From NCBI GenBank assembly GCA_036403295.1, contig DASWRG010000058.1:27815-91814 (forward strand): a DNA stretch of 64,000 nucleotides. The letters run 5' to 3'. Of the stretch, positions 19,821 to 62,721 are shown one piece after another. How positions within the stretch are numbered: position 1 is the first letter of the stretch; every line of letters starts with the position of its first letter. Under the pieces are notes generated by a model. It made no database searches. It had not been told where the DNA came from and saw only the letters and a list, made by a program, of their open reading frames with translations. The position numbers and the translations under genes are program-made. The stretch comes from Pyrinomonadaceae bacterium (GTDB lineage: Bacteria; Acidobacteriota; Blastocatellia; Pyrinomonadales; Pyrinomonadaceae).

Positions 19821-19906
19821 AAGGTTCAAGGTTCAAAGTTCAAAGTTCAAGGTTGAAAGGCACGGCTTTTCTGTCCTTGAACCTTAAACTTTGAACCTTG
19901 AACCTT
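19821..19906. repeat. Tandem-unit hairpin element, GTTCAAR family
   Basis: The left arm is aaggttcaaggttcaaagttcaaagttcaaggttgaaagg, the loop is 14 nt, and the right arm is ccttgaaccttaaactttgaaccttgaacctt. It lies between the tRNA 3-prime end and the stop of the convergent gene at 19907. Confidence 0.85.
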
Positions 19907-20362
19907 TTATCTTTGCCAGTAATTTTTGATCTTCTGTGCGAGCAATGGAAAGGGGACGTATTCGGCATTGCGTCCGGCGCGGCGCAGCTCTTCGACCATC
20001 CGCATCGCGCCGTCCGCGTTGCGCGTGTGGACGAGGATGGTCGAGGCGCGTTGAATCTCAGGCGAGGTGGCGAGCCAGAGGGCGATGGCGTAACCCGTGC
20101 GCGCGTCGTCCGTCGTCTGCGAGTGATAATGCTCCGGCAGTAGGTCGTGATCGAGAAAGATCGCGTCGTAATAATTTTGAGTTAAAAGCTCGCGCGCCTG
20201 CGTGACCGTTTCGGCGATGTCCAAATAGTCGCCTTGAAAGCGACGCGCGAACCAATCATGCCGCCGCGTGTCGTCGTCCAGCAGAAAGACACTAATCGGA
20301 TGACGCTCGGCGGAAACATTCTCTAAGCCCAGCTTGCGCATCAGTCCACGCCAAATACTCAT
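19907..20362 (-). CDS. Stand-alone receiver-like protein resembling the cyclic-phosphate-processing receiver (cREC) domain
   Basis: ISVFLLDDD...YDAIFLDHDL...TGYAIALWL...ILVHTRNADGAMRM follows the pattern I associate with cREC/REC-like domains. ATG 20362 is preferred; the longest ORF starts at GTG 20398. Confidence 0.55.
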   Translation of the reverse strand: MSIWRGLMRKLGLENVSAERHPISVFLLDDDTRRHDWFARRFQGDYLDIAETVTQARELLTQNYYDAIFLDHDLLPEHYHSQTTDDARTGYAIALWLATSPEIQRASTILVHTRNADGAMRMVEELRRAGRNAEYVPFPLLAQKIKNYWQR

Positions 20363-20587
20363 CTGTTTATAAATTAGCTCCCGACGTGCGGCTCGCACTT
20401 TTTTTTAAGATGTAAGATAGAGCGATTGAAGCTTCAACTATATCACACACGTCGGCGGGCTGATATTCGAGCGCATGTCAGACGCATAAAGCGTCATCAC
20501 TTCATGCCTGACTTTTGCCCTTTGCCTTCGCGGTGTGCTAAAAACTTTATTCATTAAATCGCATCAGACAGTTTAAAATTTTCACAG

Positions 20588-22770: not shown

Positions 22771-22867
22771 TTCTTTGCGTACTTTGCGTGTCCCTTCTTT
22801 GCGGTTAAGTTATTTTTTAACGCAAAGAGCGCAAAGGTTGAAGACGCAAAGAAACGCAAAGAGGGAA
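22771..22867. repeat. Tandem-unit hairpin element, CTTTGCG family
   Basis: The left arm is ttctttgcgtactttgcgtgtcccttctttgcggttaa and the right arm is ttaacgcaaagagcgcaaaggttgaagacgcaaagaaacgcaaagaggga. Confidence 0.8.
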
Positions 22868-22958
22868 GATGAGATTTCTGCTTGTCTTATTTTTGTGCTA
22901 TGACATCTGAATTTTTAAGAGAAATTCGAGCTTCTTAGTGAGTCTTGACGAAACGCTC

Positions 22959-22986
22959 TTGCAATCTGTGAAGCGAGTGCTATAAT
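22959..22986 (+). promoter_or_regulatory. Candidate promoter (TTGCAA, 16 nt, extended TGcTATAAT) for the DnaC-like gene
   Basis: TTGCAA at 22959-22964 and TATAAT at 22981-22986. Confidence 0.45.
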
Positions 22987-23116
22987 CCGCCCGCCTCTAA
23001 AAGTGATTCGTGAGGAAGTGCAAGGGGTCATAGCAGATTTCGCAAAACCGGCGCGATTCACATCCAGCGCATCTCTGATTTAATCGAAGTTCCCTAGAAA
23101 AAGCGTCTCGCATTCG

Positions 23117-23923
23117 ATGGCATCTGACAACGCCAAAATTTTTTCGCTCTTCCCCGTGCCGGACGCCGCGCCCGACGATTCCACAGAGCGAGACAATTTA
23201 GCTCCGGCTCATCAGCCGGACGTGTGCCCGGCCTGTTACGGCACAGGGATGGAAGTCGTGGCGGGCAGGGGGGCGCGTCCCTGTCATTGCCGCAAGCAGG
23301 AGCAGCGCGCCAAGTGGCTCGAATCGGCGCGCATCCCGCGACGCTACGAGAAATGCTCGTTTCAAAATTTCTATCCGACGCAAGGCAAGTTCTACACAAT
23401 CCAGCTCAACGCCTTTAAGTATGCCTTCACGCTCGCGCGCGAATATCCGGCGGTGGATCGCGGCCTGCTCTTTATGGGGCCGGTCGGAGTGGGCAAGACT
23501 CATCTCTCCGTCGCCATCCTGCGCGAGCTGATTGAGAAGAAAGGCATGACCTGTCTCTTCTACGAATTCGGCTCGCTCCTCAAAGAGATACAGAACTCCT
23601 GGAATCCTGTCTCGCAGACTTCGGAACTGAAAGTCTTAGAGCCTGTCTTTCAAGCAGAGGTCTTGGTCTTGGATGAGCTTGGCGCATCAAAGCCGACCGA
23701 TTGGGTCAGAGACACGATGATGCAGATCATCAACACGCGTTACAACGACCGGAAGCTGACCATCTTCACGACTAACTATTTGGACACGCGCCGCGCCGAG
23801 AAAGAAGAAACTCTAGAAGACCGCATCGGCGTGCGCCTGCGCTCGCGTATCTTCGAGATGTGCAAGACCGTGCAGATCGAGGGCGAAGACTACCGCAAGA
23901 AATTCGACGGGCAGCAAGCTTAA
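23117..23923 (+). CDS. DnaC/DnaI/IstB-like AAA+ ATPase with an N-terminal Cys4 zinc ribbon
   Basis: It has Walker [11 protein letters not shown], Walker B LVLDELG, and CPACYGTG...RPCHC. No IstA-type transposase is adjacent. Confidence 0.7.
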
Positions 23924-24001
23924 ATGTTGACCGGGCTTCTCCTCACGCTGACGTAAATCATCCATCCATCACAAGAAAACCTGCTCCGGCTCAGCCCTAT
24001 T

Positions 24002-24217
24002 AGCCCCGCCAGGGGCGGCATAGATTTATGCTAATCAAAAGTAGAGCGTGATTAAACGGAAAAGCTTTATCTTTGCGCTCTTTGCGTCTTCCTTCTTTGC
24101 GGTCTTTGCGTTTAAGTTGAAGCTTAAACGCAAAGCACGCAAAGGAAATCTCGCAAAGTACGCAAAGTTATTTTCTACTCTTGTTTCGCATAGATTTATG
24201 TCGCCCCTGACGAGGCT
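24002..24217. repeat. ~216-bp imperfect palindrome: a CTTTGCG-family hairpin (core 24071-24168) enclosed by ~30-bp outer inverted repeats
   Basis: The outer arm 24002-24031 matches the reverse complement of 24188-24217 at 25/30 positions by hand alignment. The inner arms are ctttgcgctctttgcgtcttccttctttgcggtctttgcgtttaag / cttaaacgcaaagcacgcaaaggaaatctcgcaaagtacgcaaag. Confidence 0.7.
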
Positions 24218-24984: not shown

Positions 24985-26817
24985 TCAAGGAACGTAAGCG
25001 GACGGCACGGGCACATCACCGCTCGCGCCGAAAGCTTGCGCGCTCAAAGTGTTGTTATAACTGCTCAAGACGTACCAACTGCCGCTCGACGGGCGAAAGA
25101 CCGCGAGGTCAAACTTGAAGTCGCCGTCGTAATCTCCGGGCACTGGCTTGTCCGTGTTGAGGCCGAAAGCCTGCGCGCGGAGTGTGCCGCTCTGACTGTT
25201 CAAGAGATACCAGTAGCCGTTCGAGGGGCGAAAGACGGCGAGGTCAGCTTTGCTATCTCCGTCATAATCTCCCGCGACGGGCGCGTCGCCGCTCGCGCCA
25301 AAAGCTTGCGCGCGGAGCGTGCTGTTTGAGCTTTGCCGGATATACCATGTGCCGCTCGCCGCTCTGAAGACGGCGATGTCGGTCTGGCCGTCGCCGTCGT
25401 AGTCTGCGGGCGCGGGCGCATCCGTGCCGAGACCGAAAGAGTTCACGCGCAGAGCATTATCAGAGCTTCGCCGTATGTACCAGATGCCCTGACGAAAGAC
25501 CGCCAAATCCGTCTTGCCGTCGCCGTCGAAATCGGAAGCGACGGGCGCGTCGCCGCTCGTGCCGAACATCTCGGCGCGGAACGCTCCATCGGAACTCTGT
25601 AGAATAAACCATGCGCCGTCACGAAAGACTGCGGTGTCCGTGAGGCCATCGCCGTCGTAGTCACCGGGCGCGAGCTTGTCCGTCGAGATGCCGAACTGCC
25701 GCGAGACGATTGCGCCGTTTGAGCTTGATTGTGTGAACCAGTTGCTGCTCGCGGGGCGAAAGACCGAGAGGTCAGTCTTGCCGTCGCCGTCAAAATCGCT
25801 CTGCGGCATCAACAGGTGCGACGGCGCTTGCACGACCTCGAAGTCAGACCCTTTGAGCGCGCCGAGTGTGTGCAACTCGTCATCGCTCCAACGCGTATCG
25901 GGCGAGCCGGAGACGTACCAGTTCGAGCCGTTGTCCGCGAGAATCATCCCGTATTTTTTCATCGCAGTGAGCACAACCTGCATCGCCGGCGAAAAGCCAG
26001 AGACGTTGAAAGAAGCTTTGAGCCGCACGCGCGTGCCCATCGGCGGCAGGCTCGAACTCGTGTCGCTGCTGGCATAGTGCCGAGCCGGATAAATGTATGC
26101 TCTGCGAGTTGACGAGGCGGTGAAACGCAAGGCGTGCTTAATCTCATGCTGCTCGAAGACTTCGTCGTAACGCACGAGGCCGGGAAAGATCGGCAGCCCG
26201 GCGGCGTCCGCCGAAGTCCATCCGGCAGGGCGCAAAGCGTTTGAGTTTAGATCGAAGATCGCGCCGCTGTCCGCGTCCCAGCTTGCGCCCGCGTTGACGG
26301 GCACGGACGTGTACATCTCATAAAGCTTCCATGCGTCGCGGTCAATCACCAGCACGTGCCGGTCGCCGGTTGAATTCGGCCCGCCCTCAATCGGCGCGTC
26401 CGGCGGCACAGGATAAGGGCCAGGGTCGCTCTGGTCGCCGTAGGCCATAAAATTGATGGGGACGCGCGGCTGCGCGCCCGCGACGACGACGTAAGGAATG
26501 CCGTTCGGCGCGCCCGCGTAAACCGTGCCGAAGTCAGGATGCAAACTCACATTCGCGCCCATGCTGCCTATGAGAGTCGCGGAGTTCGGGTCAATCGTCG
26601 CACGCGAGATGTCTTGATTCCAAGCGTTGTTGGCGGGAAAGAGCCTCTTGCCGTGTAGGCTCGCGCCGATGCCGAGGTCTGGAACAGCATTGCTATTATC
26701 ATTTCCTGACGCGCTAATCGGATGACGCGCGCTCGAAAAGATGAGCGCACATCCGAGGAGCGCGAGCGATGACGCGAAGAGGCGTCGCCTGAAAGAGTTT
26801 TTGGAAGCTTTCCTCAT
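24985..26817 (-). CDS. Secreted protein: unknown N-terminal ~330-aa domain plus seven FG-GAP/VCBS-type repeats
   Basis: It has a signal-like N-terminus (MRKASKNSFRRRLFASSLALLGCALIFSSA) and seven repeats of D(F/Y)DGDGKTDLAVFRP..G.WY. ATG 26817 is preferred over the longest ORF start at 26871. Confidence 0.75.
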   Translation of the reverse strand: MRKASKNSFRRRLFASSLALLGCALIFSSARHPISASGNDNSNAVPDLGIGASLHGKRLFPANNAWNQDISRATIDPNSATLIGSMGANVSLHPDFGTVYAGAPNGIPYVVVAGAQPRVPINFMAYGDQSDPGPYPVPPDAPIEGGPNSTGDRHVLVIDRDAWKLYEMYTSVPVNAGASWDADSGAIFDLNSNALRPAGWTSADAAGLPIFPGLVRYDEVFEQHEIKHALRFTASSTRRAYIYPARHYASSDTSSSLPPMGTRVRLKASFNVSGFSPAMQVVLTAMKKYGMILADNGSNWYVSGSPDTRWSDDELHTLGALKGSDFEVVQAPSHLLMPQSDFDGDGKTDLSVFRPASSNWFTQSSSNGAIVSRQFGISTDKLAPGDYDGDGLTDTAVFRDGAWFILQSSDGAFRAEMFGTSGDAPVASDFDGDGKTDLAVFRQGIWYIRRSSDNALRVNSFGLGTDAPAPADYDGDGQTDIAVFRAASGTWYIRQSSNSTLRAQAFGASGDAPVAGDYDGDSKADLAVFRPSNGYWYLLNSQSGTLRAQAFGLNTDKPVPGDYDGDFKFDLAVFRPSSGSWYVLSSYNNTLSAQAFGASGDVPVPSAYVP

Positions 26818-26932
26818 GATGATGACCCACAATGGTTTTGAAGGTGAATTGCCCGTGAGATTGTGGGACAAGAAGGGAACTGACGCTTCTTACCTTAAAA
26901 TTATTTACAGAGTTAAGTCAACAGGAAATTAA

Positions 26933-27023
26933 CCACAGAGGGCACAGAGGAATTTCAAATTCATAAATATCAAATTTGAGATTTCAGATTTGAAATCATT
27001 TAAACCTCTGTGTTCCTCTGTGG
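26933..27023. repeat. Composite hairpin: CACAGAGG-unit outer arms with an AAATCTS-type element in the loop
   Basis: ccacagagggcacagaggaa ... cctctgtgttcctctgtgg. The loop contains aatttgagatttcagatttgaaatc. Confidence 0.8.
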
Positions 27024-32142: not shown

Positions 32143-32259
32143 TCACCGCAGAGACGCGGAGACGCAGAGGAAAAATAAGAGTAGGCAGTTAGCAGTGCGC
32201 AGTTGGTAGTAATACTTGACTTTTATCTTTCTTGTATCGTCTCTGCGTCTCTGCGGTGA
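32143..32259. repeat. Tandem-unit hairpin element, CGCAGAGA family, with a ~67-nt loop containing GCAGTT tandem units
   Basis: tcaccgcagagacgcggagacgcagagg ... cgtctctgcgtctctgcggtga. The loop contains aggcagttagcagtgcgcagttgg. Confidence 0.8.
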
Positions 32260-34037: not shown

Positions 34038-34098
34038 CAGTTTTCAGTTTTTAGTTTTCAGCACGAACTAAAAACTAAAAACTGAAAACTGAAAACTG
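34038..34098. repeat. Tandem-unit hairpin element, AGTTTTY family (copy 1 of 4)
   Basis: cagttttcagtttttagttttcag - cacgaa - ctaaaaactaaaaactgaaaactgaaaactg. It starts 2 nt after the nuoA stop and ends 3 nt before the nuoB ATG. Confidence 0.9.
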
Positions 34099-45322: not shown

Positions 45323-45326
45323 AATC

Positions 45327-45346: not shown

Positions 45347-45371
45347 GGATTGAAAAGCAGTAGGAGAGTTT

Positions 45372-45905: not shown

Positions 45906-45908
45906 GAG

Positions 45909-46644: not shown

Positions 46645-46698
46645 TAAATGATAAGAGACAAGCTATTCGGATTTTCTTATCACTCATCACCTGTCACT
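46626..46698. repeat. Tandem-unit hairpin element, GTGATGA family
   Basis: agtgataagtgatgagtgataaatgataagagacaagct ... cttatcactcatcacctgtcact. It shares AGAGACAAGCT with the element at 37021. Confidence 0.8.
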
Positions 46699-46709
46699 AA
46701 AAAAAACTT

Positions 46710-47108
46710 ATGAATGCAATTTATCCCGGTATGATTTTGTGGTGGCAGGAAGCGGGCAAGTGGGCGCAGGTGTGGGATAACATGAAGCAGCCGGACTTGT
46801 CGAAGTTTCTGGTCATCGGCGCGCTGCTTTTTATCATCGGCGTGGCGGGCGTGCTCACCAGGCGCAACATCATCGTCATCTTCATGTCCATCGAGCTGAT
46901 CTTGAACGCAGCTAACTTGAACTTCATCGCCTTCTCTCGTTACTTGCAGGACACGGGCAAGATGAACGCCATCGCCGGCCAGGTCTTTACGATCTTTATC
47001 ATCGTCGTCGCCGCCGCCGAAGCCGCCATCGGCCTCGGCATCGTCATCGCGCTCTATCGCAATCGGGAAACGATCTGGGTTGATGAGATTGATCTACTGA
47101 AATGGTAA
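46710..47108 (+). CDS. nuoK: NADH-quinone oxidoreductase subunit K
   Basis: [33 protein letters not shown]. The alternative start ATG 46782 (MKQPDLS...) would give the usual ~108 aa. Confidence 0.9.
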
Positions 47109-47111
47109 AGA

Positions 47112-47186
47112 CAGTTTTCAGTTTTTAGTTTTCAGTTTTAAGAAATCTGCTTGCACTGAAAACTAAAAACTGAAAACTGAAAACTG
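47112..47186. repeat. Tandem-unit hairpin element, AGTTTTY family (copy 4 of 4)
   Basis: cagttttcagtttttagttttcagttttaag ... ctgaaaactaaaaactgaaaactgaaaactg. It starts 3 nt after the nuoK stop and ends 3 nt before the nuoL ATG. Confidence 0.9.
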
Positions 47187-47189
47187 CTT

Positions 47190-49778
47190 ATGTACAGATA
47201 CATCTGGCTCGTTCCGCTTCTGCCGCTTGCGGGGGCAGCCATCAATGGGCTGCTCGGGCGGCGGTTTCGCTTCTCGGAAAAGCTGATCGGCTCAATCGCG
47301 GTCGGCTCGGTCGCGCTCGCGTTTGTGATTAGCCTGCTCGCCGTCTATTCATACGGCTTCGGCGGCAACGCGAAGTGGCCGAAGCCGTATGTGACGAGCG
47401 AGGACGGCGCGTTCAAGTACACTTGGATTTCGGGCGGAGCGGTGGAGATTACGCAGGGCGCGCCCGAACGCGCGCGCGCCAGAAGCGGCGGCGAGCGGGC
47501 GACTGAGTTTGGGAGAGGCACACCGACTCTCAGCGGCGAAAGAGTGGCGAGTGAAGCCGCCAGCGTCACCACTCCTGAGAGCGACCCTCCGGGCTTAGGG
47601 CTGCGCGCAGAACGGGACAATCAGCCGAACGAGTTGACGGGGCGCGGCGCGACGCTCAACATCGAATGGAGCTATCAGCTCGACCCGCTCTCCGGCGTTT
47701 TCATGCTCATTGTGACGGGCGTGGGCCTTTGCATCTTCGTCTTTGCGACGGGCTACATGCATGGCGACGCGGGCTTTTATCGCTTCTTCGCGTATCTCGG
47801 CCTCTTCATGTTCATGATGCTGATCCTCGTCATGGGATCAAACTTCCTGATGATGTTCGTCGGGTGGGAGGGCGTCGGTCTCTGCTCATATCTTTTAATC
47901 GGTTACTACTTTGATCGCAAAGAAGCGGGCGACGCTTCGCGCAAAGCTTTTATCACGAATCGCATCGGGGACTTCGGCTTCGCGCTCGCAGTCTTTGGCG
48001 TCATCGCCACGTTCGGCACGACGCAGTATGCGAACGTGATGGCGCAGGCGAGCGGTTATCCAATCGAAGCTTTGGGGCACTGGGGCATTATGAGCTGGCT
48101 TGCGCTCGGCCTCTTCGTCGGCGCGTGCGGCAAGAGCGCGCAGATACCGCTTTACGTCTGGCTGCCGGATGCGATGGCCGGGCCGACTCCTGTCTCCGCT
48201 CTGATTCACGCGGCGACGATGGTCACAGCCGGACTCTACATGCTGACGCGGACGAACGTTATTTTTCAGCACTCGCAGACGATGCTTCTGGTCGTCGCTA
48301 TCGTCGGAGCGGCGACGGCCATCTTCGCCGCGACCATCGGCATTACGCAGAACGATATTAAAAAAGTTCTGGCTTATTCGACCGTCTCGCAGCTTGGCTT
48401 TATGTTCATGGCTTGCGGCGTCGGAGCGTTCGCCATCGGCATCTTTCACGTGATGACGCACGCGTTCTTCAAAGCCCTGATGTTTCTCGGCGCGGGCAGC
48501 GTGATACACGGCATGCATCACGAGCAGGACATGCGGCGCATGGGCGGCTTGAAGAAGTACATGCCCAAAACTTACTGGACTTTTCTGGCGGGCTGGCTCG
48601 CCATCTGCGGCATCATTCCGTTTAGCGGCTTCTGGTCGAAGGACGAGATTCTGTGGAACGCGGCCTCGACGACTTACATTCCATACGGCTGGATTATCTG
48701 GCTCGTCGGGACAATCGCCGCGACCTGCACCGCTTTTTACATGACGCGCCTCGTGGCGATGACCTTCTGGGGTAAGGAGAGATTTTTAGAAGTCTCGGCG
48801 GGAGACGAAGCCGACGAAGCGCACGCGCATGGCGTGGATGAGTTCGGCAAGCCGCACGACGCACAGACTTTTTCGGCTGGCGACCGTCCGCATCACGAGC
48901 CGGGCGAACACGTCGGTATCGCTCATGACATGCATGCTTCACACACTGGCGTGCATGTGCATGACGCGCATGAGCACGGCTCTCATGTTCCGCATGAGTC
49001 TCCGCCTTCGATGTGGATTCCGCTCGCAGTGCTGGCGGTGCTCGCAGTCATCGGCGGCTTCGTCGGCATCACCACAGCGTTCACAGGCGGGAAGCACGTC
49101 GGCGGGCGCATGAACATCGTCACGTGGCTGAGTCCGGTCATCTGGAATCCACAGACGAAGGAGTTCAATCAGCCGGAAGGTGAAACGGCGGGCGAGGCTG
49201 CGCGCAGTGAAGCGGGAGAGGGCGGCGCGGTCGCTGCTTACGGCGACACGGGATTTAATCTGGCTCGCACGGTGGAGCATTCTCTCGGCGAAAAGGGCAC
49301 AGAGTTTCTATTCATCGGCATCTCGCTTTTGGCGGCAGGACTTGGCATGTTTCTCGGTTGGCTCTTCTATGTCAAAGACACGCGCCTGCCGGACATCTGG
49401 GCGAAGAGGCTCGCGCCGCTCTATCGCGCGAGCTACCACAAGTATTGGGTGGATGAATTATACGGCGCGGTCTTTACGCGGCGGACGATGGATGCCGCGC
49501 GCGGCGTGTATGAAGTGGACTCGGACATCGTGGACGGCGCGGTCAACGGCGTGGCCTCTTTGACGCGCGGCGCGAGCCGCTTGACGGGCGGGATAGACAA
49601 GTACGTGGTGGACGGACTCGTCAATACGATTGCGGGATTTATCAAGAGCCTGATGTCGCCTTTGATTCGCGCGGCGCAGACGGGCTTGACGGCGAACTAC
49701 GCTCTCGTGATGGTGCTGGGCCTCGTCATCGCCGTCGCCGTCTTTTTCGCCAAAGACATCTGGGCGACGATCTTTTAA
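47190..49778 (+). CDS. nuoL: NADH-quinone oxidoreductase subunit L (862 aa, with two lineage-specific insertions)
   Basis: It has the antiporter-like core (GWEGVGLCSYLLIGYY, AGPTPVSALIHAATMVTAG). There is a ~90-aa insert encoded at ~47380-47650 and a His-rich segment at ~48790-49010. Confidence 0.95.
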   Translation: MYRYIWLVPLLPLAGAAINGLLGRRFRFSEKLIGSIAVGSVALAFVISLLAVYSYGFGGNAKWPKPYVTSEDGAFKYTWISGGAVEITQGAPERARARSGGERATEFGRGTPTLSGERVASEAASVTTPESDPPGLGLRAERDNQPNELTGRGATLNIEWSYQLDPLSGVFMLIVTGVGLCIFVFATGYMHGDAGFYRFFAYLGLFMFMMLILVMGSNFLMMFVGWEGVGLCSYLLIGYYFDRKEAGDASRKAFITNRIGDFGFALAVFGVIATFGTTQYANVMAQASGYPIEALGHWGIMSWLALGLFVGACGKSAQIPLYVWLPDAMAGPTPVSALIHAATMVTAGLYMLTRTNVIFQHSQTMLLVVAIVGAATAIFAATIGITQNDIKKVLAYSTVSQLGFMFMACGVGAFAIGIFHVMTHAFFKALMFLGAGSVIHGMHHEQDMRRMGGLKKYMPKTYWTFLAGWLAICGIIPFSGFWSKDEILWNAASTTYIPYGWIIWLVGTIAATCTAFYMTRLVAMTFWGKERFLEVSAGDEADEAHAHGVDEFGKPHDAQTFSAGDRPHHEPGEHVGIAHDMHASHTGVHVHDAHEHGSHVPHESPPSMWIPLAVLAVLAVIGGFVGITTAFTGGKHVGGRMNIVTWLSPVIWNPQTKEFNQPEGETAGEAARSEAGEGGAVAAYGDTGFNLARTVEHSLGEKGTEFLFIGISLLAAGLGMFLGWLFYVKDTRLPDIWAKRLAPLYRASYHKYWVDELYGAVFTRRTMDAARGVYEVDSDIVDGAVNGVASLTRGASRLTGGIDKYVVDGLVNTIAGFIKSLMSPLIRAAQTGLTANYALVMVLGLVIAVAVFFAKDIWATIF

Positions 49779-49779
49779 A

Positions 49780-49901
49780 GCTGTGCTTTGGAATTTGTTC
49801 TTTGTGCTTTGCACGCGGCTCAACATTAAGCTCATCGCTCAAGCTTGAGCATTACGAACAAAGAACAAAAGACAAAGAACAAAGTACAAAAGACAAAAAT
49901 C
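49780..49901. repeat. Tandem-unit hairpin element, CTTTGTR family, with an inner palindrome GCTCAAGCTTGAGC
   Basis: gctgtgctttggaatttgttctttgtgctttgcacg ... cgaacaaagaacaaaagacaaagaacaaagtacaaaagacaaaaatc. Confidence 0.7.
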
Positions 49902-51599
49902 ATGAAACTTCCTTATCTTCTTTCCATCATCACATGGCTGCCCGCGCTGGGCGCGATGTTCATTCTCGCGGTCTTTAAGAAAGAGCAGTCCAAGCTCATC
50001 AAGCAGTTTACGACCGCTTGGTTCGCGTTGACGTTTTTAGGCTCGCTGTTGCTGCTGAATTACGACCGCGCGCGTGGCGGGATGCAGTTTCTCGAAGATA
50101 AGTCGTGGATTCCGATTATCGGCGCACGCTACCAGATGGGCGCGGACGGCGTGGCGGTGCTGCTCATTGTGCTGACGACGCTGCTCGGCGTCATCGCCTG
50201 CCTCTCCTCCTGGAAATATATCGAGAAGCGCGAGAAGGAATATTACGTTCTGCTCCTGCTCTTGCAGACCGCAGTGGTCGGCGTCTTCGCTTCGATGGAC
50301 TTGTTTCTCTTCTATCTCTTCTTTGAAGTCTCGCTCGTGCCGATGTATTTCCTGATCGGCATCTGGGGCGGCGAGAGAAGATTGTACGCGGCGATAAAAT
50401 TTTTCCTCTACACTTTGGTCGGCTCGGTCGTGATGCTGCTCGGCGTGTTGAAGATGTACTTCCTGACGCAGGACGCGACGATGGCGGGTCAGATAAGCGA
50501 AGCGACGCTCAAGACTATCGCTCCCAACGGGGAGGCGCGCGTGCTCCTCGATGCTGCGGTGGCGGCGGCCAAAAGCGGCGCGGGCACATTCAATATCATG
50601 TACATGCAGTCGTTAGGCTCTGTGATGCCGATGGGCACGATGCAGGTACTGCTTTTCTTCGCCTTCGCGCTCGGCTTTGCGATCAAAGTCCCGATGTTTC
50701 CGTTTCACACCTGGCTGCCGGACGCGCACGTCGAAGCTCCGACCGCAGGCTCTGTCATTCTCGCGGGCATTTTGCTCAAGCTCGGAACTTACGGCTTCTT
50801 CCGTTTCAACCTGCCGATGTTTCCCAAAGCCTCGATTGATGAAACGAGTTGGCAGACGGGCTTCGGGACGTTCGGCGTGAGGAGCGTGATGGTCTTCCTC
50901 GCGCTCGTCGGCATCATCTACGGCGCGCTGGCGGCGATGTACTTCGTCGTCAAAAAGGACGGTGACGTGAAGAAGCTGGTCGCGTATTCGTCCGTCTCTT
51001 CGATGGGCGTCGTGATGCTCGGCCTCTTCTCTTTGAATCCGAACGGAGTCAACGGCGCGGTCTTGCACATGGTCAATCACGGTATCTATTCCGCCGCGCT
51101 CTTCCTGCTCGTCGGCATCATTTACGAGCGACGGCACACGCGCAACATAGCCGAGTTCGGCGGCCTCTCGCACGTCATGCCGGGATACGCGGCGGTCTTT
51201 CTGGCGATGGCGATGACGGCCATCGGATTGCCGCTCCTGTGCGTCTTCATCTCAGAATTTTTAGCCATGCGCGGAGCTTTTGAAGCCAAGCCTTTGTGGG
51301 CTTCGTGGGCTGCGCTCGGAATCATCCTGAACGCGGGTTACATGCTCTGGCTCTATCAACGCATGTTCTTCGGCAACATCGAGAATCCGAAGAACGAAAA
51401 GCTGATAGACATGAGCGGGCGCGAGTGGGCATACATGCTGCCGCTCGTCGTGCTCTCGATCTGGATCGGCGTCTACCCGACGTTTTTCACGGACTACATC
51501 CAGCAGCCCGTCAACGCGGTGGTGAGACAGGTGCGCCCGAGCTATCCGATACCGGGCGGGCCGCCCGTACAGCAAGTGCCGGAGACGGCGGCGAAGTAA
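49902..51599 (+). CDS. nuoM: NADH-quinone oxidoreductase subunit M
   Basis: It has the antiporter-like core (FPFHTWLPDAHVEAPTAGSVILAG). ATG 49902 is preferred; the longer ORF N-terminus (KEQKTKNKVQKTK) just translates the repeat arm. Confidence 0.95.
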   Translation: MKLPYLLSIITWLPALGAMFILAVFKKEQSKLIKQFTTAWFALTFLGSLLLLNYDRARGGMQFLEDKSWIPIIGARYQMGADGVAVLLIVLTTLLGVIACLSSWKYIEKREKEYYVLLLLLQTAVVGVFASMDLFLFYLFFEVSLVPMYFLIGIWGGERRLYAAIKFFLYTLVGSVVMLLGVLKMYFLTQDATMAGQISEATLKTIAPNGEARVLLDAAVAAAKSGAGTFNIMYMQSLGSVMPMGTMQVLLFFAFALGFAIKVPMFPFHTWLPDAHVEAPTAGSVILAGILLKLGTYGFFRFNLPMFPKASIDETSWQTGFGTFGVRSVMVFLALVGIIYGALAAMYFVVKKDGDVKKLVAYSSVSSMGVVMLGLFSLNPNGVNGAVLHMVNHGIYSAALFLLVGIIYERRHTRNIAEFGGLSHVMPGYAAVFLAMAMTAIGLPLLCVFISEFLAMRGAFEAKPLWASWAALGIILNAGYMLWLYQRMFFGNIENPKNEKLIDMSGREWAYMLPLVVLSIWIGVYPTFFTDYIQQPVNAVVRQVRPSYPIPGGPPVQQVPETAAK

Positions 51600-51600
51600 A

Positions 51601-51702
51601 TTTTGCTCTTTGTACTTTGTGCTTTGCTTGTGAGTTTCAAACTTGAGAAATAGGCTCAATGCTGAGCCACTTGCAAAGCGCAAAGCACAAAGTACAAAAA
51701 TC
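51601..51702. repeat. Tandem-unit hairpin element, CTTTGTR family
   Basis: ttttgctctttgtactttgtgctttgcttgtgag ... cttgcaaagcgcaaagcacaaagtacaaaaatc. There are 19 nt of perfect complementarity (TTTGTACTTTGTGCTTTGC). Confidence 0.8.
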
Positions 51703-51708
51703 TAAAAT

Positions 51709-53274
51709 ATGTTTCTTCTTCAAGCTAACACGACCAGTCTTTTCAATCCGAGCGACCTGCAATTGATCGCGCCGGAATTGATTCTGACCATCTGCGCGTG
51801 CATCGCGCTCGTGATGGAAGTCATCCTGCCGTACAAGAAGACCAAGCTTACGGCGCAGCTCGCGCTCGGCGGCATCGCGCTCGCTTTTATCTCGCTTTAC
51901 ATCCAGCTCGCGCAGATGGGCGGGACGTATAAAGTTTGGAGCATCGCCGCCCTGACGCCGCTCGAAGGCTTTTACGGCATGGTGCGGATTGACGGCTTTG
52001 CGATTCTCTTCAAAGCGATTTTCCTCGTCGCCGCCGCGCTCGCCGTCGCCATCTCGACGCGCTATCTGGACATAGAGGGCGAGCAGCACGGCGAGTATTA
52101 CGCGCTCATTCTATTTGCGACCATCGGGATGCTGTTTCTCGCGTGCGGCTACGACCTGATCGTGCTTTACATCAGCCTCGAACTGATGGCGCTCACGTTC
52201 TACGTCCTCGTCGCTTTCACCAAACGCGAGAAACGCTCGAACGAAGCCGCGATGAAATATTTTCTGCTCGGCGCGTTCTCTTCGGGGATTTTGCTGTACG
52301 GCATGTCACTGCTCTACGGCATCACAGGCTCGACCAACCTCGGCGAGATCGGCCAGAGCATCGGCCAGATTATCAACACCGCGCCGGATGAGACCGGAGC
52401 GGCGGTCGCTTCCGTGCGGCCATTGCTGTTGCTCGGCATGATTAGCCTTGCCGCCGGACTCTTTTTCAAAATCAGCGCAGTCCCTTTTCACATGTGGGCA
52501 CCGGATGCTTACGAAGGCGCGCCAACCTCCGTCACAGCATTCCTCTCAACCGGCTCAAAGGCCGCGAGCTTCGCTCTTTACGCGCGCATCTTTCTCGAAG
52601 CACTGGGCGGGATGCGTGTTGATTGGGCGCCGGTCTTGGGCATCGTCGCGGCGATTACGATTCTGGTCGGCAACTGGGGCGCGGTCACGCAGGATAACTC
52701 GAAACGCCTGCTCGCCTATTCTTCGATCTCGAACGCGGGCTACTTGCTGCTCGGCCTGATAGCCGCCAACGAGTGGGGCTACAAGGGAATCATTATTTAT
52801 CTCTTCGTCTACACGCTGATGAACATGGGCGCGTTCGGCATCATCATCAGCCTGCGTCGGCGCGGCATCATCGGCGACAACGTCGAAGACATGGCCGGAC
52901 TCTCGCAGAAAGCTCCGGGCATGGCCTTTATGATGGCTGTCTTCATGCTAAGCTTGGGCGGCCTGCCCGCGACGGGCGGCTTTATGGGCAAGTGGTTTCT
53001 GATTGGCGGCCTCCTGCAACGCGGCAAGCTCGACGGCAAGAACTGGTACTACTGGCTCGCGGGCTGGGCGATTATCAACACGGTCGTCTCCTTCTATTAC
53101 TACGTGCGCTTCATCCGCGTGATGTACATCGGCGAGCGAGTCGCTGACGACCGCCCGCTCGCGCTCTCGCCCGCGCTCAAAACCGCCCTCGTCGTCGCGC
53201 TCATCGGCATCATCCTCGTCGGCATCTTCCCGCAGCCGTTCATCAATCTCGCGCAACATCTGATGAAACAATAG
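51709..53274 (+). CDS. nuoN: NADH-quinone oxidoreductase subunit N
   Basis: It has the antiporter-like core (PFHMWAPDAYEGAPTSVTAFLS). Confidence 0.95.
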   Translation: MFLLQANTTSLFNPSDLQLIAPELILTICACIALVMEVILPYKKTKLTAQLALGGIALAFISLYIQLAQMGGTYKVWSIAALTPLEGFYGMVRIDGFAILFKAIFLVAAALAVAISTRYLDIEGEQHGEYYALILFATIGMLFLACGYDLIVLYISLELMALTFYVLVAFTKREKRSNEAAMKYFLLGAFSSGILLYGMSLLYGITGSTNLGEIGQSIGQIINTAPDETGAAVASVRPLLLLGMISLAAGLFFKISAVPFHMWAPDAYEGAPTSVTAFLSTGSKAASFALYARIFLEALGGMRVDWAPVLGIVAAITILVGNWGAVTQDNSKRLLAYSSISNAGYLLLGLIAANEWGYKGIIIYLFVYTLMNMGAFGIIISLRRRGIIGDNVEDMAGLSQKAPGMAFMMAVFMLSLGGLPATGGFMGKWFLIGGLLQRGKLDGKNWYYWLAGWAIINTVVSFYYYVRFIRVMYIGERVADDRPLALSPALKTALVVALIGIILVGIFPQPFINLAQHLMKQ

Positions 53275-53327: not shown

Positions 53328-53407
53328 CCGCAAAGGCGCAAAGAAAAGCACGCAAGGAACAAGCAGCATTCAGCGTCTTTGCGTTCTTCCTTTGCGCCTT
53401 TGCGCGA
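53328..53407. repeat. Tandem-unit hairpin element, CTTTGCG/CGCAAAG family
   Basis: cccgcaaaggcgcaaagaaaagcacgcaaggaac ... gtctttgcgttcttcctttgcgcctttgcgcg. It shares a 28-mer and an 18-mer with the element at 61213. Confidence 0.85.
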
Positions 53408-53422: not shown

Positions 53423-54661
53423 ATGTGGGTCTTTTACTTCTTCGCGGTCATCGTTATCTGGCAGGGCTTGATGTCGCTCGCGAGCGGCGTGCGGTTTCTC
53501 GCGTATGTGCGGCGCGAGATGGAGAAGCCGCCGAATAATTTCACGCCCTTCGTTTCTCTCATCGCGCCGTGTCGCGGCCTCGATCAAGGTTTGAGAGAGA
53601 ATCTCGCCGCGCTCTTCCGGCAAAGCTTTCCGGCCTACGAAATTATTTTTGTGACTGACAGAGCCGATGATCCGGCCATCGCCGTCATCGAAGAAGCGCG
53701 CCGTGAATTTGAGAAGCAAGCTCACATTACTTCTCGTCTCGTCATCGCGGGCGAGGCGACCGGGAGCGGGCAGAAGGTTCACAACCTGCTCGCGGCTGTC
53801 GCTGAAGCCGATGTGAAAAGCTTCGCCTTCATCTTCGCGGATACGGACGCGCGCCCCTCGGCTGATTGGCTGCGCTGGCTCATCTCGCCTCTGAATTGTC
53901 AAAATGTCGGAGCGGCGACAGGCTATCGCTGGTTCATTCCAGAGCGCGGCGGCTTTAGCTCGCACCTGCGCGCGGTGTGGAACGCTTCGATTGCTTCGGC
54001 CCTGGGCGAGCGCGGCGACAGGAATTTTTGCTGGGGAGGCGCGACCGCCATTCGCCGCGAGACGTTTGAAAAACTTGTGATGAGAGACGTGTGGCGCGGC
54101 ACGCTCTCGGACGATTTCGCTCTGATGCGCGCCCTCAGACGCGCGAAGCTCGACATCTATTTCGTGCCCGCGTGCCTCACGGCGTCGGTTGAAGATTGCG
54201 GCTTGCTTGAGCTCTTGGAGTTTACTACGCGGCAACTAAAGATCACGCGCGTCTACGCGCCGCATTTCTGGAAAGCAGTCCTCGCGGGCAGCCTGCTCTT
54301 CGTCTCCGTCTTCTTCGGCGGCCTCGCGCTGGTCATCACGCGCGCCGCGCTCGGCCTCTCGTACTGGCTGCCGCTCATGCTCCTGAGCCTGATTTTCATA
54401 CTCGGAGCAGCCAAAGCCGCCCTGCGCCTGCGCGCCGTCCGTCTGCCGTTAAAAGCTTATGATGCGGAGCTTACTAAAGGCGCGCTCGCGCATCTGACGC
54501 TCTGGCCGCTCGCGTCCGCGCTCTATCTGTACAACGCCGTCTGCGCGCTCTTCTCGCGTCGCATCAACTGGCGCGGCATCACCTACGAATTGAAATCACC
54601 GACGGAAACTGTCATCATGGAAAAGCAGGTTCAAAGTTCAAGGTTCAAAGTTCAAGGTTAA
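53423..54661 (+). CDS. Membrane glycosyltransferase, GT2/GT21 (ceramide-glucosyltransferase/HpnI-like)
   Basis: LIAPCRGLD...EIIFV.D..DDPA...GQKVHNL...FADTDARP...SDDFAL, with N- and C-terminal TM helices. The last 11 codons lie in a hairpin arm. Confidence 0.7.
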   Translation: MWVFYFFAVIVIWQGLMSLASGVRFLAYVRREMEKPPNNFTPFVSLIAPCRGLDQGLRENLAALFRQSFPAYEIIFVTDRADDPAIAVIEEARREFEKQAHITSRLVIAGEATGSGQKVHNLLAAVAEADVKSFAFIFADTDARPSADWLRWLISPLNCQNVGAATGYRWFIPERGGFSSHLRAVWNASIASALGERGDRNFCWGGATAIRRETFEKLVMRDVWRGTLSDDFALMRALRRAKLDIYFVPACLTASVEDCGLLELLEFTTRQLKITRVYAPHFWKAVLAGSLLFVSVFFGGLALVITRAALGLSYWLPLMLLSLIFILGAAKAALRLRAVRLPLKAYDAELTKGALAHLTLWPLASALYLYNAVCALFSRRINWRGITYELKSPTETVIMEKQVQSSRFKVQG

Positions 54662-54706
54662 GACATGGAGTCTGTCTTTTAACCTTGAACTTTGAACCTT
54701 GAACCC
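54627..54706. repeat. Tandem-unit hairpin element, GTTCAAR family
   Basis: aggttcaaagttcaaggttcaaagttcaaggttaagaca ... tgtcttttaaccttgaactttgaaccttgaaccct. Confidence 0.9.
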
Positions 54707-55838
54707 TCTTAAAAGCGTGTTAGCTAAAGCCACACAACTTGTCCAACTTCTGCGTTCGACGAAACGCGAAAAGCGTCTCGGCACGGTGATTCTATTTGTC
54801 ACGTCGCGCTGCAATGCGTTCTGCAAGACCTGCTTTTATCATGAAGAGCTGAACCAGCCGGGCGACCTGTCCCTTGAACAGCTTGAGAAGATTTCAAACA
54901 CGATGCCGCCCATCACAGACCTCTGGCTGTCTGGCGGCGAGCCGATGCTGCGGCGAGACCTGACGCAGGTGATTGACACTTTTATTCTCAACAACGGCGT
55001 CAAGCGCATCATCATCCCGACCAACGGCCTCGTCAAAGCGCGCACGTTTGAAGTCGTCAATCACGCCCTCGAAAATCATCCCGCGATTGATCTCTATCTG
55101 AACATCGCGCTCGACGGTTACGGCCAGACTCACGACGAAATTAGAGGCGTGCCGGGCAACTGGGAAAAGACTCTGGACTGCATCTCTTCGCTCTATCCCT
55201 TGAAAGAGAAGTGCGCGTCTCGCTTTCGCCTCAACGTCAACACGGTCGTCTGCGCCGAGAATTACACAGAGATTGAGAAGCTCTCCGAGTTTTTGTGGAA
55301 GAACTTTCGACTCGACGGGCAATACTTCAACATCGTGCGCGGCGAAACCAAAGTCGGAGACGAGATCAAACAAGTCCCGCCGGAAATCTTGCCTGAGATG
55401 TACGCGCGCGTCTCTGCTTTAACCAAACGCTACGGCGACCGGATGTTTGCCGCAGATGACGCGAGCAAACGTTTCGTCAAAAACGTGGCCTACGTCGGCG
55501 CAATCGCGACGCACTATCGCACGCAACACGCCAACTTTAAGGGCGCGAGCGATTGGCCTTTCCCCTGCACGGCTGGCGAGACGACCGCCGTCATTGATTA
55601 CAACGGTGATGTGAGAGCCTGCGAGCTGAGGGAAAAGTTTGCGACGCTCGCCGATTACGATTTCGATTTCGGCAAGCTCTGGGCTGAGCAAGAACGGCAG
55701 ACCGAACTGCGCGCGATTGACGGCGGCAAGGCGTGCTGGTGCACGCACGTCTGCTTCATACACGACTCCATGCGCCACTCGCGCCGCGCGCTGCTTTATG
55801 AGCTGCCGAAAAATTATTTGACGCGCAATTCATGGTAG
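54699..55838 (+). CDS. Radical SAM enzyme with a SPASM/twitch-like C-terminal Cys motif
   Basis: It has CNAFCKTC (CX3CX2C), then C-X12-G-X4-C (CTAGETTAVIDYNGDVRAC) and CWCTHVC. The start is uncertain: TTG 54699 or GTG 54717. Confidence 0.75.
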   Translation: MNPLKSVLAKATQLVQLLRSTKREKRLGTVILFVTSRCNAFCKTCFYHEELNQPGDLSLEQLEKISNTMPPITDLWLSGGEPMLRRDLTQVIDTFILNNGVKRIIIPTNGLVKARTFEVVNHALENHPAIDLYLNIALDGYGQTHDEIRGVPGNWEKTLDCISSLYPLKEKCASRFRLNVNTVVCAENYTEIEKLSEFLWKNFRLDGQYFNIVRGETKVGDEIKQVPPEILPEMYARVSALTKRYGDRMFAADDASKRFVKNVAYVGAIATHYRTQHANFKGASDWPFPCTAGETTAVIDYNGDVRACELREKFATLADYDFDFGKLWAEQERQTELRAIDGGKACWCTHVCFIHDSMRHSRRALLYELPKNYLTRNSW

Positions 55839-55913
55839 TTCAAAGTTCAAGGTTTAAGGTTCAAAGTTAATATCATCCTGCGAACCTTGAACCTTAAACT
55901 TTGAACCTTGAAC
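55838..55913. repeat. Tandem-unit hairpin element, GTTCAAR family
   Basis: gttcaaagttcaaggtttaaggttcaaagttaa ... cgaaccttgaaccttaaactttgaaccttgaac. Confidence 0.9.
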
Positions 55914-58270: not shown

Positions 58271-58310
58271 CCTTCCTTTTGCTTTTTACCTTTTACCTTT
58301 TTACTTTTTA
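58271..58310. repeat. Single-arm pyrimidine-rich tandem units (CCTTTTA-type)
   Basis: ccttccttttgctttttaccttttacctttttacttttta. There is only a weak purine partner (ggaaaagtcgaaaagg at ~58189-58204) on the other side of the terminator. Confidence 0.5.
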
Positions 58311-61212: not shown

Positions 61213-61311
61213 TCACGCAAAGGCGCAAAGGCGCAAAGAAAAGCACGCAAGCTTCAAGTGGCACTCAACCTCTTAGCGTTCTTCCTTTGCGCCACCAGCG
61301 CCTTTGCGTGA
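61213..61311. repeat. Tandem-unit hairpin element, CTTTGCG/CGCAAAG family
   Basis: tcacgcaaaggcgcaaaggcgcaaagaaaagcacgcaagc ... cttagcgttcttcctttgcgccaccagcgcctttgcgtga. Confidence 0.85.
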
Positions 61312-61329
61312 AAATTATTCTGATACAGC

Positions 61330-62640
61330 TTACTTCTCATCCATCAACACGCCGAGCATCTCAACCGTCCTTTCAGTCGCGCCGCGATTCTGCTTCATGA
61401 TTGAGAGCGCGCGGGCGGCAAGCTCCTGCCGACGCTCTTTGTCTGCGAGCAATTCCGAAAAGACTGTGGAGAGAGCGGCGACTGCTTCGTCGTCCGTCAC
61501 GGGCGGAAGCTCTACGAGCGCGTTGGCTTTGGTGAAGACGCGCATGATGGCTGCGAAGTTGAACGTGTGCGCGCCAGTGACGATACACTTTCCAGCCGCC
61601 GCAGGCTCAAGCACATTATGCCCGCCAACGGGAGCGATGCTGCCGCCGACGAAAACCATCTCCGCGAGAGGATAGACTGCGCGAAGCTCTCCGATGCTGT
61701 CGAGCAGGATCGCGTCACACTCTTTATCACTTGCCGTTGTAACAGCAGAGCGGCGTGACCATGTGAGGCCGGAATTGTTTAAGAGGGAAGCTGTCTCTGC
61801 GAATCGTTCGGGATGGCGCGGGGCGATGAGCAGTCTCGGAGCGTGTGCGGCGGAAGCTTTACTCGCTTCCTTGAACGCTTCGATGACGATTCGTTCTTCG
61901 GGCGCGTGCGTGCTGGCGGCGACGATGAGCGGCCTCTCATTTCCGAGAGCAAAACGCGCGCGAAGCTCTGCGGTCAAACCCTGTTCGCTCGCGTCCACGC
62001 TGGCGTCAAACTTGATATTGCCTGTGACCTGGACGCGCTCAGGCGCGAGGCCGAGCGCACGGATTCGCGCGGCGTCCGCTTCGGCCTGCATGAGCGCGAG
62101 GTCGAGGTCGCAGACGACTCTTGAGATGAAACTGCGAAGCAGGCGATAGCGGCGGAATGAGCGTTCCGAGAGCCGACCGTTGACCATCGCCGTTCTGATT
62201 TTGCGCCGCCGGCACTCGCGCAGGAATCCCGGCCACAACTCCGTCTCCATAATCAGGACGACCGCCGGATTGATCGCGCGCAGAGTCCGGCGCACAGTCC
62301 AACGCCAATCGAAAGGGAAGTAGAAGACGAGCGCGGCTTCATTGCGAAAGACTTCGCGTGCGACTCTCTGGCCTGTCAGCGTGATGGTCGAGACGACGAG
62401 CTTGTAATTCGGAAAGCGTTGGCGAAGCTCCTGAACGAGAGGCCGCGCGGCCTGCGTCTCTCCGACCGAAACCGAATGCAGCCAGACGACCGGACGCCCG
62501 TCCCGTTCGAGCGCGGGGACTTTGCCCAACCGCTCGCCGAGTCCCGCCACATATTTGCCGTGACGCAGGGCGTCAAGCAGAAAACGCGGCAGCAGCACGA
62601 CGACGCCGAGCGTGAGCAGGATGCTGTAGAGAAGATACAC
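61330..62640 (-). CDS. waaA: 3-deoxy-D-manno-octulosonic acid (Kdo) transferase
   Basis: VWLHSVSVGETQAARPL and the GT30 layout. The GTG start lies immediately after a hairpin arm. Confidence 0.9.
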   Translation of the reverse strand: MYLLYSILLTLGVVVLLPRFLLDALRHGKYVAGLGERLGKVPALERDGRPVVWLHSVSVGETQAARPLVQELRQRFPNYKLVVSTITLTGQRVAREVFRNEAALVFYFPFDWRWTVRRTLRAINPAVVLIMETELWPGFLRECRRRKIRTAMVNGRLSERSFRRYRLLRSFISRVVCDLDLALMQAEADAARIRALGLAPERVQVTGNIKFDASVDASEQGLTAELRARFALGNERPLIVAASTHAPEERIVIEAFKEASKASAAHAPRLLIAPRHPERFAETASLLNNSGLTWSRRSAVTTASDKECDAILLDSIGELRAVYPLAEMVFVGGSIAPVGGHNVLEPAAAGKCIVTGAHTFNFAAIMRVFTKANALVELPPVTDDEAVAALSTVFSELLADKERRQELAARALSIMKQNRGATERTVEMLGVLMDEK

Positions 62641-62721
62641 AGTTCAGGGTTCAAGGTTCAAAGTTCAAGGTTCAAAGTGGATGAGCGTTAAACCTTGAAC
62701 TTTGAATCTTGAGCCTTGAAC
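62641..62721. repeat. Tandem-unit hairpin element, GTTCAAR family
   Basis: agttcagggttcaaggttcaaagttcaaggttcaaag ... ttaaaccttgaactttgaatcttgagccttgaac. It exactly fills the efp-stop to waaA-start gap. Confidence 0.9.

Follow-up and report, generated by a model that had tools for sequence, protein, structure and literature searches.

Hairpins with tandem-heptamer arms in the operon spacers of a Pyrinomonadaceae chromosome and related loci

The hairpins and their genomic setting

We analysed a 64,000-nt stretch of the genome of a Pyrinomonadaceae bacterium (GCA_036403295.1, DASWRG010000058.1, positions 27,815 to 91,814, forward strand; hereafter the window), in which a preliminary description, made without database searches, had listed 20 intergenic hairpins and two single arms, all composed of short tandem units. 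The nearest genomes to the window are metagenome-assembled genomes (MAGs) of Pyrinomonadaceae, a family of the Acidobacteriota, class Blastocatellia. Positions 1-19350 are prophage-like and encode a lambda-type portal, a capsid/prohead-protease fusion, a tape-measure protein and a pectate-lyase-like tail fibre; a tRNA-Phe gene (19742-19817) adjoins this region. The remainder of the window is chromosomal; besides carB, prfA and efp it carries a nuo cluster, in which nuoA-B are followed by nuoC, an 85-aa open reading frame (ORF), nuoD, a ureidoglycolate-lyase-like gene and nuoH-N. For comparison, the window was combined with 80 related nuo loci (about 1.2 Mb altogether, the set on which counts across loci are based); compared contigs and loci, among them relatives, metagenome and phage contigs and a Nostoc plasmid, carry the labels L001-L150.

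An inverted-repeat search of the window recovered repeats at essentially all of the listed positions, often in alternative registers at one site, in keeping with the suggestion that the stems can pair in several ways. Tandem Repeats Finder (TRF), with which tandem arrays were called, showed that both arms are arrays of period 7, often of exact period 14; periods of 8 (at 32147 and 61216) and of 9-10 (at 22820-24111) also occur in the window, and the units fall into about nine families there. RNA folding, with 200 dinucleotide shuffles of each element as the reference, bore out 19 of the 20 listed hairpins: their folding free energies (ΔG) lie between -26.8 and -59.5 kcal/mol with z scores of -4.4 to -10.6, and none of the 200 shuffles folded as well. 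The listed array directly before nuoD (42215-42248) is short and partly self-complementary, and its fold is unremarkable (z -1.0). Both single arms are present where they had been placed. In a strand-symmetric scan for inverted repeats scoring at least 14, the window gave 18 hits, all at or beyond 19.8 kb, and 20 dinucleotide shuffles of the window gave none. The 19-kb prophage region of the window contains no heptamer hairpins. The 20 elements lie in about 43 kb; this density of one per roughly 2.2 kb is close to the one per 2 kb first proposed, and of the spacers between genes in the chromosomal part of the window about half are occupied (Table 1).

Two negative statements of the preliminary description also hold. 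The elements are not CRISPR arrays, which consist of direct 23-50-nt repeats with unique spacers that are similarly long, unlike the contiguous, inverted arrays of 7-9-nt units seen here. Nor are they simple intrinsic terminators: in the 40-60 kb stretch of the window that was scanned with a terminator consensus, no hairpin as a whole was flagged as a stem with a T-tail, and one small inner stem at 53391 matches a loose terminator pattern. No element matches a model in Rfam 15, the tRNA-Phe gene being the only match in the whole window.

The hairpins recur base for base in contigs from two other metagenome samples, one 99.985% identical to the window (L001) and the other 99.865% identical, with four single-nucleotide differences, none of them in a hairpin (L087). 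Elements of the same class are also found in closed "chromosome" MAGs of relatives (L005, L021, L028, L032 and L054), which, going by their MFD names, appear to be long-read assemblies. Because identical hairpins are found in two other samples and the class is present in closed MAGs, the elements are not an assembly artefact, an origin that the preliminary description had wished to see checked.

Table 1. Elements of the window and the transposase gene of its prophage region, with folding free energy (ΔG, kcal/mol) and z score against dinucleotide shuffles
Position	Feature	Site and remarks	ΔG	z
2183-2614 (- strand)	IS200/IS605-type Y1 transposase gene	Pfam Y1_Tnp, E 6e-38; NCBIfam transpos_IS200 NF033573, E 2e-38		
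19821-19906	GTTCAAR-family hairpin	arms 32 nt, loop 22 nt; starts 3 nt past tRNA-Phe, far end abuts the stop of a convergent gene	-48.9	-9.8
22771-22867	CTTTGCG(+2-3 nt)-family hairpin	period 9-10	-38.2	-5.2
24071-24168	CTTTGCG-family hairpin	kin of the element at 22771	-52.6	-10.6
26933-27023	nested element	CACAGAGG outer arms around an inner AAATCTS / GATTTSA array pair	-38.9	-8.7
32143-32259	CGCAGAGA hairpin	period 8; 73-nt loop; 3 nt past carB stop	-59.5	-8.7
34038-34098	CAGTTTT-family hairpin	nuoA-nuoB spacer; 2 nt from nuoA stop, 3 nt from nuoB start	-26.8	-8.7
37021-37099	GTGATGA-family hairpin	between prfA and next gene (both - strand); ΔG for the sense strand	-35.2	-6.1
41871-41952	CAGGACT/CAGGAGT-family hairpin	between nuoC and conserved 85-aa ORF	-33.5	-5.1
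42215-42248	AAATCTS array	directly before nuoD; short, weakly self-complementary, no significant hairpin		-1.0
43386-43473	CAGTTTT-family hairpin	fills spacer between nuoD and ureidoglycolate-lyase-like gene	-33.5	-6.8
45327-45346	single-arm GATTTSA array	past nuoH stop; AGGAG Shine-Dalgarno of nuoI free downstream of array		
45909-45996	CAGTTTT/TAGTTTT hairpin	period 14; fills nuoI-nuoJ spacer; 3' arm abuts nuoJ ATG; identical in L087	-39.6	-9.6
46626-46698	GTGATAA/GTGATGA-family hairpin	nuoJ / nuoK; 5' arm covers last 19 nt of nuoJ with stop codon; identical in L087	-29.8	-6.0
47112-47186	CAGTTTT-family hairpin	fills nuoK-nuoL spacer	-35.3	-8.3
49780-49901	CTTTGTR-family hairpin	fills nuoL-nuoM spacer	-38.0	-4.4
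51601-51702	CTTTGTR-family hairpin	fills nuoM-nuoN spacer	-44.0	-7.4
53328-53407	CGCAAAGG-family hairpin	past nuoN	-40.9	-6.0
54627-54706	GTTCAAR-family hairpin	5' arm covers upstream gene's last 35 nt with stop codon	-44.0	-9.4
55838-55913	GTTCAAR-family hairpin	directly 3' of stop of radical-SAM gene	-34.3	-9.2
58271-58310	T-rich single-arm array (CTTTTTA / CCTTTTA)	class membership uncertain		
61213-61311	CGCAAAGG-family hairpin	between lpxK-like and waaA-like genes (- strand)	-56.4	-6.6
62641-62721	GTTCAAR-family hairpin	efp / waaA-like gene spacer (- strand), filled exactly, 0 nt left either side	-39.9	-8.9

Anatomy, position and polarity across related loci

Period 7 dominates the comparison set: 790 arrays have it, whereas 89 have period 6 and 100 have period 8. 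The related loci contain 187 distinct canonical heptamers. Most heptamer arrays (69%) are paired, that is, have an inverted partner within 130 nt, and 31% are unpaired. The number of copies per arm peaks sharply at 4-5 (397 of 782 arrays); the median arm is 27 nt long and the longest about 34 nt, and the median element measures 80 bp (60-120 bp in the window). An element begins with 4-5 tandem 7-nt units, usually G/T-rich and C-poor, continues with a short inner stem that runs from A-rich to T-rich and a variable apical loop, and ends with 4-5 units that are the reverse complement of the first.

The intergenic siting that had been proposed proved to be strong: 237 of 247 periodic hairpins lie between called genes, eight within an ORF and two at the edge of a locus. 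The genes flanking them are co-directional in 220 cases, convergent in 14 and divergent in three, whereas the intergenic regions available number 828, 84 and 106, respectively, so divergent regions are depleted of hairpins (Fisher p = 2.7e-7). The fit between the flanking genes is tight, with a median of 3 nt from the stop codon to the 5' arm and of 10 nt from the end of the 3' arm to the next start. In the window, 12 of the 20 elements nearly fill their spacer, beginning at most 3 nt from the stop codon or overlapping it and ending no more than 11 nt before the start, and 9 or 10 of the 12 junctions of the nuo cluster are occupied. Where a Shine-Dalgarno sequence is present, as before nuoI, it is left free downstream of the element.

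A palindrome reads the same on both strands, and the order of its arms is therefore a genuine attribute of the element. The 5' arm contains more G than C in 214 elements and less in 15, with a composition of 35% T, 29% G, 26% A and 10% C. Among 205 co-directional elements, the 3' arms hold six ATG or GTG triplets and none of the Shine-Dalgarno-like 4-mers GGAG, GAGG and AGGA, as compared with 262 and 118 in the 5' arms. The G>C polarity persists between convergent genes (12 versus 1) and is repeated in independent metagenome contigs (38 versus 3). A mirrored order of unit variants between the arms scored barely higher than arms with permuted units (24.0 versus 21.3), a comparison of low power given about four units.

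Two possible causes of the polarity were tried and found no support. Native upstream regions are not G-poor, those free of hairpins containing 24% G, and in stop codons the arms show no clear difference. The causes tested could not explain the polarity.

Pyrinomonadaceae lineages without heptamer hairpins have periodic palindromes of two other kinds in the same spacers (L033, L038, L039, L056, L066 and L078, in nuoI-nuoJ and nuoK-nuoL; also L022, L038, L052, L062 and L075). In the first kind, 9-10-mers that are each complementary to themselves stand in tandem (TAGGTCCTATAGGACCTA...). In the second, a hairpin is built of units of 10-11 nt (GGCACAAAAAG ... CTTTTTGTGCC) and has the opposite polarity, the A/C-rich arm standing first.

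Copying, nesting, turnover and spread

The elements exist as families defined by their arms and their loop. When elements of one family from different spacers of the same genome are compared, the loops are similar in 20% of pairs, versus 0.5% for pairs from different families. Across several species, members of the GTGGTCA family retain one variant unit, GTGGTCG, along with a common loop. Within the window, the elements at 53328 and 61213 have a non-periodic inner sequence in common and are thus copies of one element. Elements also insert into or beside one another: in the nuoH-nuoI spacer of L003, a CAGAAGT hairpin stands within the loop of a GTGATAA hairpin.

A given spacer does not keep its family. 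One and the same orthologous spacer is filled, depending on the species, by CAGTTTT, GGGATGA, GGATTTT, GTGGTCA, GTGATAA, GCGGATT or other families, and in genomes without elements the nuo spacers measure 4-50 nt. Two loci whose nuoD genes are 94.9% identical (L035 and L054) share a family in none of six comparable spacers, five holding different families and one being empty in L035; L054 and L067 have two families in common. Elements are thus lost and replaced on a time-scale of about 5% gene divergence. At the 0.13% divergence that separates the window from L087, three elements are unchanged and show no change of length, and they are therefore not hypervariable contingency loci. A metagenome scan for length variants of the nuoI-nuoJ element, made with its exact flanks, had no matches. 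Shared loops, retained variant units, nesting and the turnover of families together indicate that elements are copied as whole units to several sites per genome and inserted there. They survive almost exclusively in transcribed, non-promoter DNA, either between co-directional genes or after convergent ones.

An exchange of arms around a retained loop, an idea suggested by L011 and L036, was rejected, as loops of different families at one spacer are similar only at the background rate of 0.5%. Nor was a Y1 or REP-associated tyrosine transposase (RAYT; REP stands for repetitive extragenic palindrome) linked to the elements found in the comparison set. A tblastn search of the comparison set with two Nostoc TnpA proteins found a single Y1 transposase, the IS200-type gene of the prophage; it falls below the cut-off of the REP_Tyr_transpos model and is not flanked by hairpins. 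Together with small ORFs that extend to about 3090, this gene lies between the portal and capsid genes, in the stretch of lowest GC content in the window.

Matches to the CAGTTTT-hairpin pattern occur in phage contigs whose GC content is about 67%, where they lie between genes for head and tail proteins, and in at least 120 metagenome contigs of 29-70% GC; in many of the latter, other heptamer units form paired arrays as well. The class thus extends beyond Pyrinomonadaceae, and the occurrence of CAGTTTT-arm hairpins in phages and over so wide a range of base composition hints at a widespread, largely undescribed class of bacterial repeats.

Three of the phage contigs (L082, L083 and L085, from IMG/VR), whose GC content of 66-68% is far above that of the window, carry CAGTTTT/CAGTGTT and GGCTGTC hairpins between structural genes for head-tail connector, head-completion and tail-completion proteins. 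A metagenome contig of 40% GC (L150) has at 241-365 a direct array of 17.6 copies of GATTTTC adjoining a CAGTTTT hairpin. This array is far longer than any arm of the Pyrinomonadaceae loci and comes nearer to the extended arrays on record from cyanobacteria and Bacteroidetes.

Neighbouring genes of the window

The nuo cluster (40733-53274 in the window, and likewise in L002-L081) is unusual in that nuoE, nuoF and nuoG are absent between nuoD and nuoH. The 85-aa ORF between nuoC and nuoD (41959-42216) is conserved, and the ureidoglycolate-lyase-like (cupin) gene between nuoD and nuoH (43474-43932) is found in many, not all, Pyrinomonadaceae loci. A 135-nt tandem repeat of 2.3 copies (25006-25322), inside a long ORF on the - strand (24985-26871), is coding and unrelated to the hairpins; it encodes protein modules of about 45 residues (...DYDGDGKTDLAVFR...), which appear to be FG-GAP/VCBS-like. 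A putative endonuclease gene of the Uma2 family (DUF820) lies at 38203-38766 on the - strand, and two Uma2 genes are annotated in the 150 kb of plasmid alpha that served for comparison with Nostoc PCC 7120 (L089). In cyanobacteria, for which heptamer repeats are likewise known, the Uma2 family is strongly expanded.

Origin and maintenance of the elements

We consider it somewhat probable that the elements are REP-like, self-propagating palindromic repeats of the short tandemly repeated repetitive (STRR) type that are tolerated in operon spacers. Two tests gave no sign of selection acting on the mRNA strand. Mismatches in the stems show no excess of wobble pairs on the sense strand (G:T 108 versus A:C 89, p = 0.2), and folding gives that strand no advantage, the mean ΔG being -41.9 for the sense and -42.2 for the antisense strand, with the sense strand better in 110 elements and worse in 107. 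The lack of both signals favours a palindrome that propagates itself at the DNA level. Propagation would act on the DNA palindrome through a hairpin-specific or a recombination/template-switch mechanism, and replication slippage combined with template switching from arm to arm may hold the arms periodic and complementary. Selection would mainly filter the sites at which elements persist and the content that they are permitted. The fold-back structure would keep stop and start codons near each other, and the scarcity of start codons and Shine-Dalgarno-like motifs in the 3' arm would be such filtered content.

Since each element must fold in the mRNA, with a stem of 25-35 bp, effects on decay, RNase III cleavage and translational coupling are to be expected. 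Protection of 3' ends, RNase III cleavage and coupling are likely by-products of the elements rather than what maintains them, and may possibly have been co-opted at some sites.

Several points weigh against self-propagation. Neither target-site duplications nor a conserved terminal motif were found in aligned copies or in pairs of empty and filled sites, and no mobilising enzyme was identified in the comparison set. The size optimum, the arm polarity and the near-saturated nuo spacers could equally mean a selected function. The absence of hairpins from the prophage fits slow accumulation and fits a function in host operons equally well. Some junctions show a likeness between the unit and the sequence around it (GACACCC in L004/L012; GGATGA at the nuoJ stop in L045/L020), which would fit a local origin better than insertion.

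A rather unlikely alternative is that the elements are functional RNA structures that punctuate operons, a hairpin being kept in each spacer despite the change of families. The stem may shield the upstream cistron from 3'-5' decay or be cut by RNase III, as in SRPS (selective RNA processing and stabilization), or it may, instead or as well, bridge the stop codon and the next start and so keep translation coupled. The confinement to transcribed spacers and near-absence from divergent promoter regions would be expected of such elements, as would the stop-stem-start geometry with the Shine-Dalgarno sequence kept free, the tight stem length of 4-5 units, the contrast between the arms in start codons and Shine-Dalgarno-like 4-mers, and the filling of the same nuo spacers in most species despite family turnover. 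Stem-loops that set stoichiometry in complex-encoding operons are described in the SRPS literature (PMC4423207, PMC8219983), and effects on transcript stability or translational coupling have been proposed for the STRR hairpins of cyanobacteria (PMC2670836). An RNA function should, however, have left a mark on the sense strand, in folding or in wobble-compatible mismatches, and none was seen. Related genomes cope with hairpin-free spacers of 4-50 nt, the polarity is unchanged between convergent genes, where there is no downstream start, and Shine-Dalgarno-like motifs are about as frequent upstream of nuo starts with a hairpin (18%) as upstream of those without (19%).

An extended form of this alternative, which we regard as improbable when all its parts are taken together, holds that the elements are a domesticated, family-wide system of operon punctuation. 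The stem would bridge stop and start codons about 90 nt apart, with terminating ribosomes re-initiating across its base, which would be the equivalent in bacteria of ribosome shunting. Design features would be the constant stem length of about 30 bp and a 3' arm that is poor in G and has neither start codons nor Shine-Dalgarno-like motifs; a dedicated machinery would write heptamers in a fixed G>C polarity and would be common to Acidobacteriota, cyanobacteria and other soil bacteria or pass between them by way of phages.

We likewise give little credence to a de novo, non-mobile origin at each site, whereby slippage would produce an array, fold-back or template switching an inverted copy of it, and quasipalindrome correction a matching pair of arms. 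Heptamers are reported to be the commonest long simple-sequence repeats in prokaryotes and have been ascribed to polymerase slippage (Mrazek 2007, as cited in PMC4679880). The single-arm arrays at 45327 and 58271, the unpaired 31% of arrays, the likeness of units to local sequence noted above and the strand symmetry of mismatch types are consistent with such an origin. It is weakened by copies at different sites that share loops and the order of unit variants, by the recurrence of the same families across many spacers and species, by a copy number that peaks sharply at 4-5 instead of being broadly spread, and by the constant length of three elements between strains from different samples.

That the elements are unconventional terminators or attenuators without a U-tract is highly improbable: the stems are stable and stand after stop codons, and some lie between convergent genes or, as at 19821, after a tRNA gene, but 9 or 10 of them are within the presumably co-transcribed nuo cluster, the terminator scan described above found no whole-hairpin stem with a T-tail, and many stems are A/U-rich rather than G/C-rich.

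Self-propagation and mRNA-level function differ in their consequences. If the elements affect mRNA stability or coupling, they would influence the expression of most operons in one abundant soil-bacterial group; if they are purely selfish, they offer a clean system in which to study how palindromic repeats spread and how translation constrains them. With dozens of related genomes, their turnover can be tracked spacer by spacer.

Comparison with known repeats

STRR heptamer repeats have been known in cyanobacteria since about 1990, their origin and function being unexplained. The classical STRR1-3 units do not match the units of the window. Heptamer STRR hairpins of unknown function are on record between the co-transcribed hupS and hupL genes of Anabaena, Nostoc and Lyngbya (PMC2670836), and the view of the preliminary description that the combination belongs to no family that can be named was overstated. 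Like the elements described here, STRRs are tandem heptamers that are intergenic, often within operons, capable of forming hairpins and diverse, with many unit families per genome. Some units are even shared: ccactga, ctactga and ttgtcag of Nostoc 7120 (PMC2408588) correspond to GTGGTCA, GTAGTCA and GTTGTCA, which form 34, 12 and 5 arrays, respectively, in Pyrinomonadaceae loci. The window's own units match none on the Nostoc list. They also differ from STRRs in their host, Acidobacteriota rather than heterocystous cyanobacteria, and in the dominance of the hairpin form (69% paired), a density of about one per 2 kb, arms of 4-5 units and the G>C polarity. The 150 kb of Nostoc plasmid alpha contain 13 period-7 arrays (seven with at least 2.8 copies), one distant inverted pair and, in our scan, no hairpin; with so few arrays, the plasmid is a poor proxy for the Nostoc chromosome.

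Beggiatoaceae, cyanobacteria and Bacteroidetes also have heptamers, the TAACTGA direct repeats (MacGregor 2015, PMC4679880). These form arrays of 2-6 copies that stand within a few nucleotides of start codons, on the upstream side, and the spacers concerned are mostly devoid of canonical ribosome-binding sites (PMC4679880). Their unit differs by one base from AAACTGA, which the commonest family here has as its 3'-arm unit. In contrast, they have a single unit sequence, are nearly all direct (one inverted set among 170) and are proposed to be single-stranded protein-binding sites (PMC4679880), whereas the arrays described here pair into stems.

With REPs and the BIME and REPIN elements built from them, the elements share the character of short, high-copy extragenic palindromes that lie in transcribed spacers or after genes, are excluded from promoters, are duplicated within genomes and show rapid turnover among relatives. 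REPs reportedly stabilise the 3' ends of mRNAs and are said to affect translation when near stop codons. They are, however, imperfect palindromes of 20-40 nt and not internally periodic, in contrast to the 60-120 bp and periodic arms found here. Their conserved GTAG/CGTC head is absent from our elements, the ends of which vary by family (CAGT..., AGTG..., GGAT...), and REPs are tied to a RAYT transposase, none of which was found in the comparison set.

Correia elements and other miniature inverted-repeat transposable elements (MITEs) resemble the elements in their length of about 100 bp, in terminal inverted repeats that fold into long hairpins and in being often co-transcribed; Correia transcripts are cut by RNase III. 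Their terminal inverted repeats are non-periodic, their unique core is longer and they have target-site duplications (such as TA), which were not seen here. Intercistronic stems comparable to those of the window are also formed by the RNase III sites between the early genes of phage T7. A stable stem between cistrons of an operon for a multi-subunit complex is likewise described for SRPS stem-loops (PMC4423207). The SRPS and T7 structures are individual, conserved and non-repetitive, with a demonstrated RNA function, whereas the elements described here form repeat families without a sense-strand signature.

In our literature searches, no paper on elements of this sort in Acidobacteriota came to light. 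Because hairpin-forming STRRs have already been described in cyanobacteria, the elements are a variant of known repeats and not a new kind. Judging by the literature that could be searched, the apparently new features are the phylum in which they occur, the dominance of the hairpin form, their density, the arms of 4-5 units and the G>C polarity.

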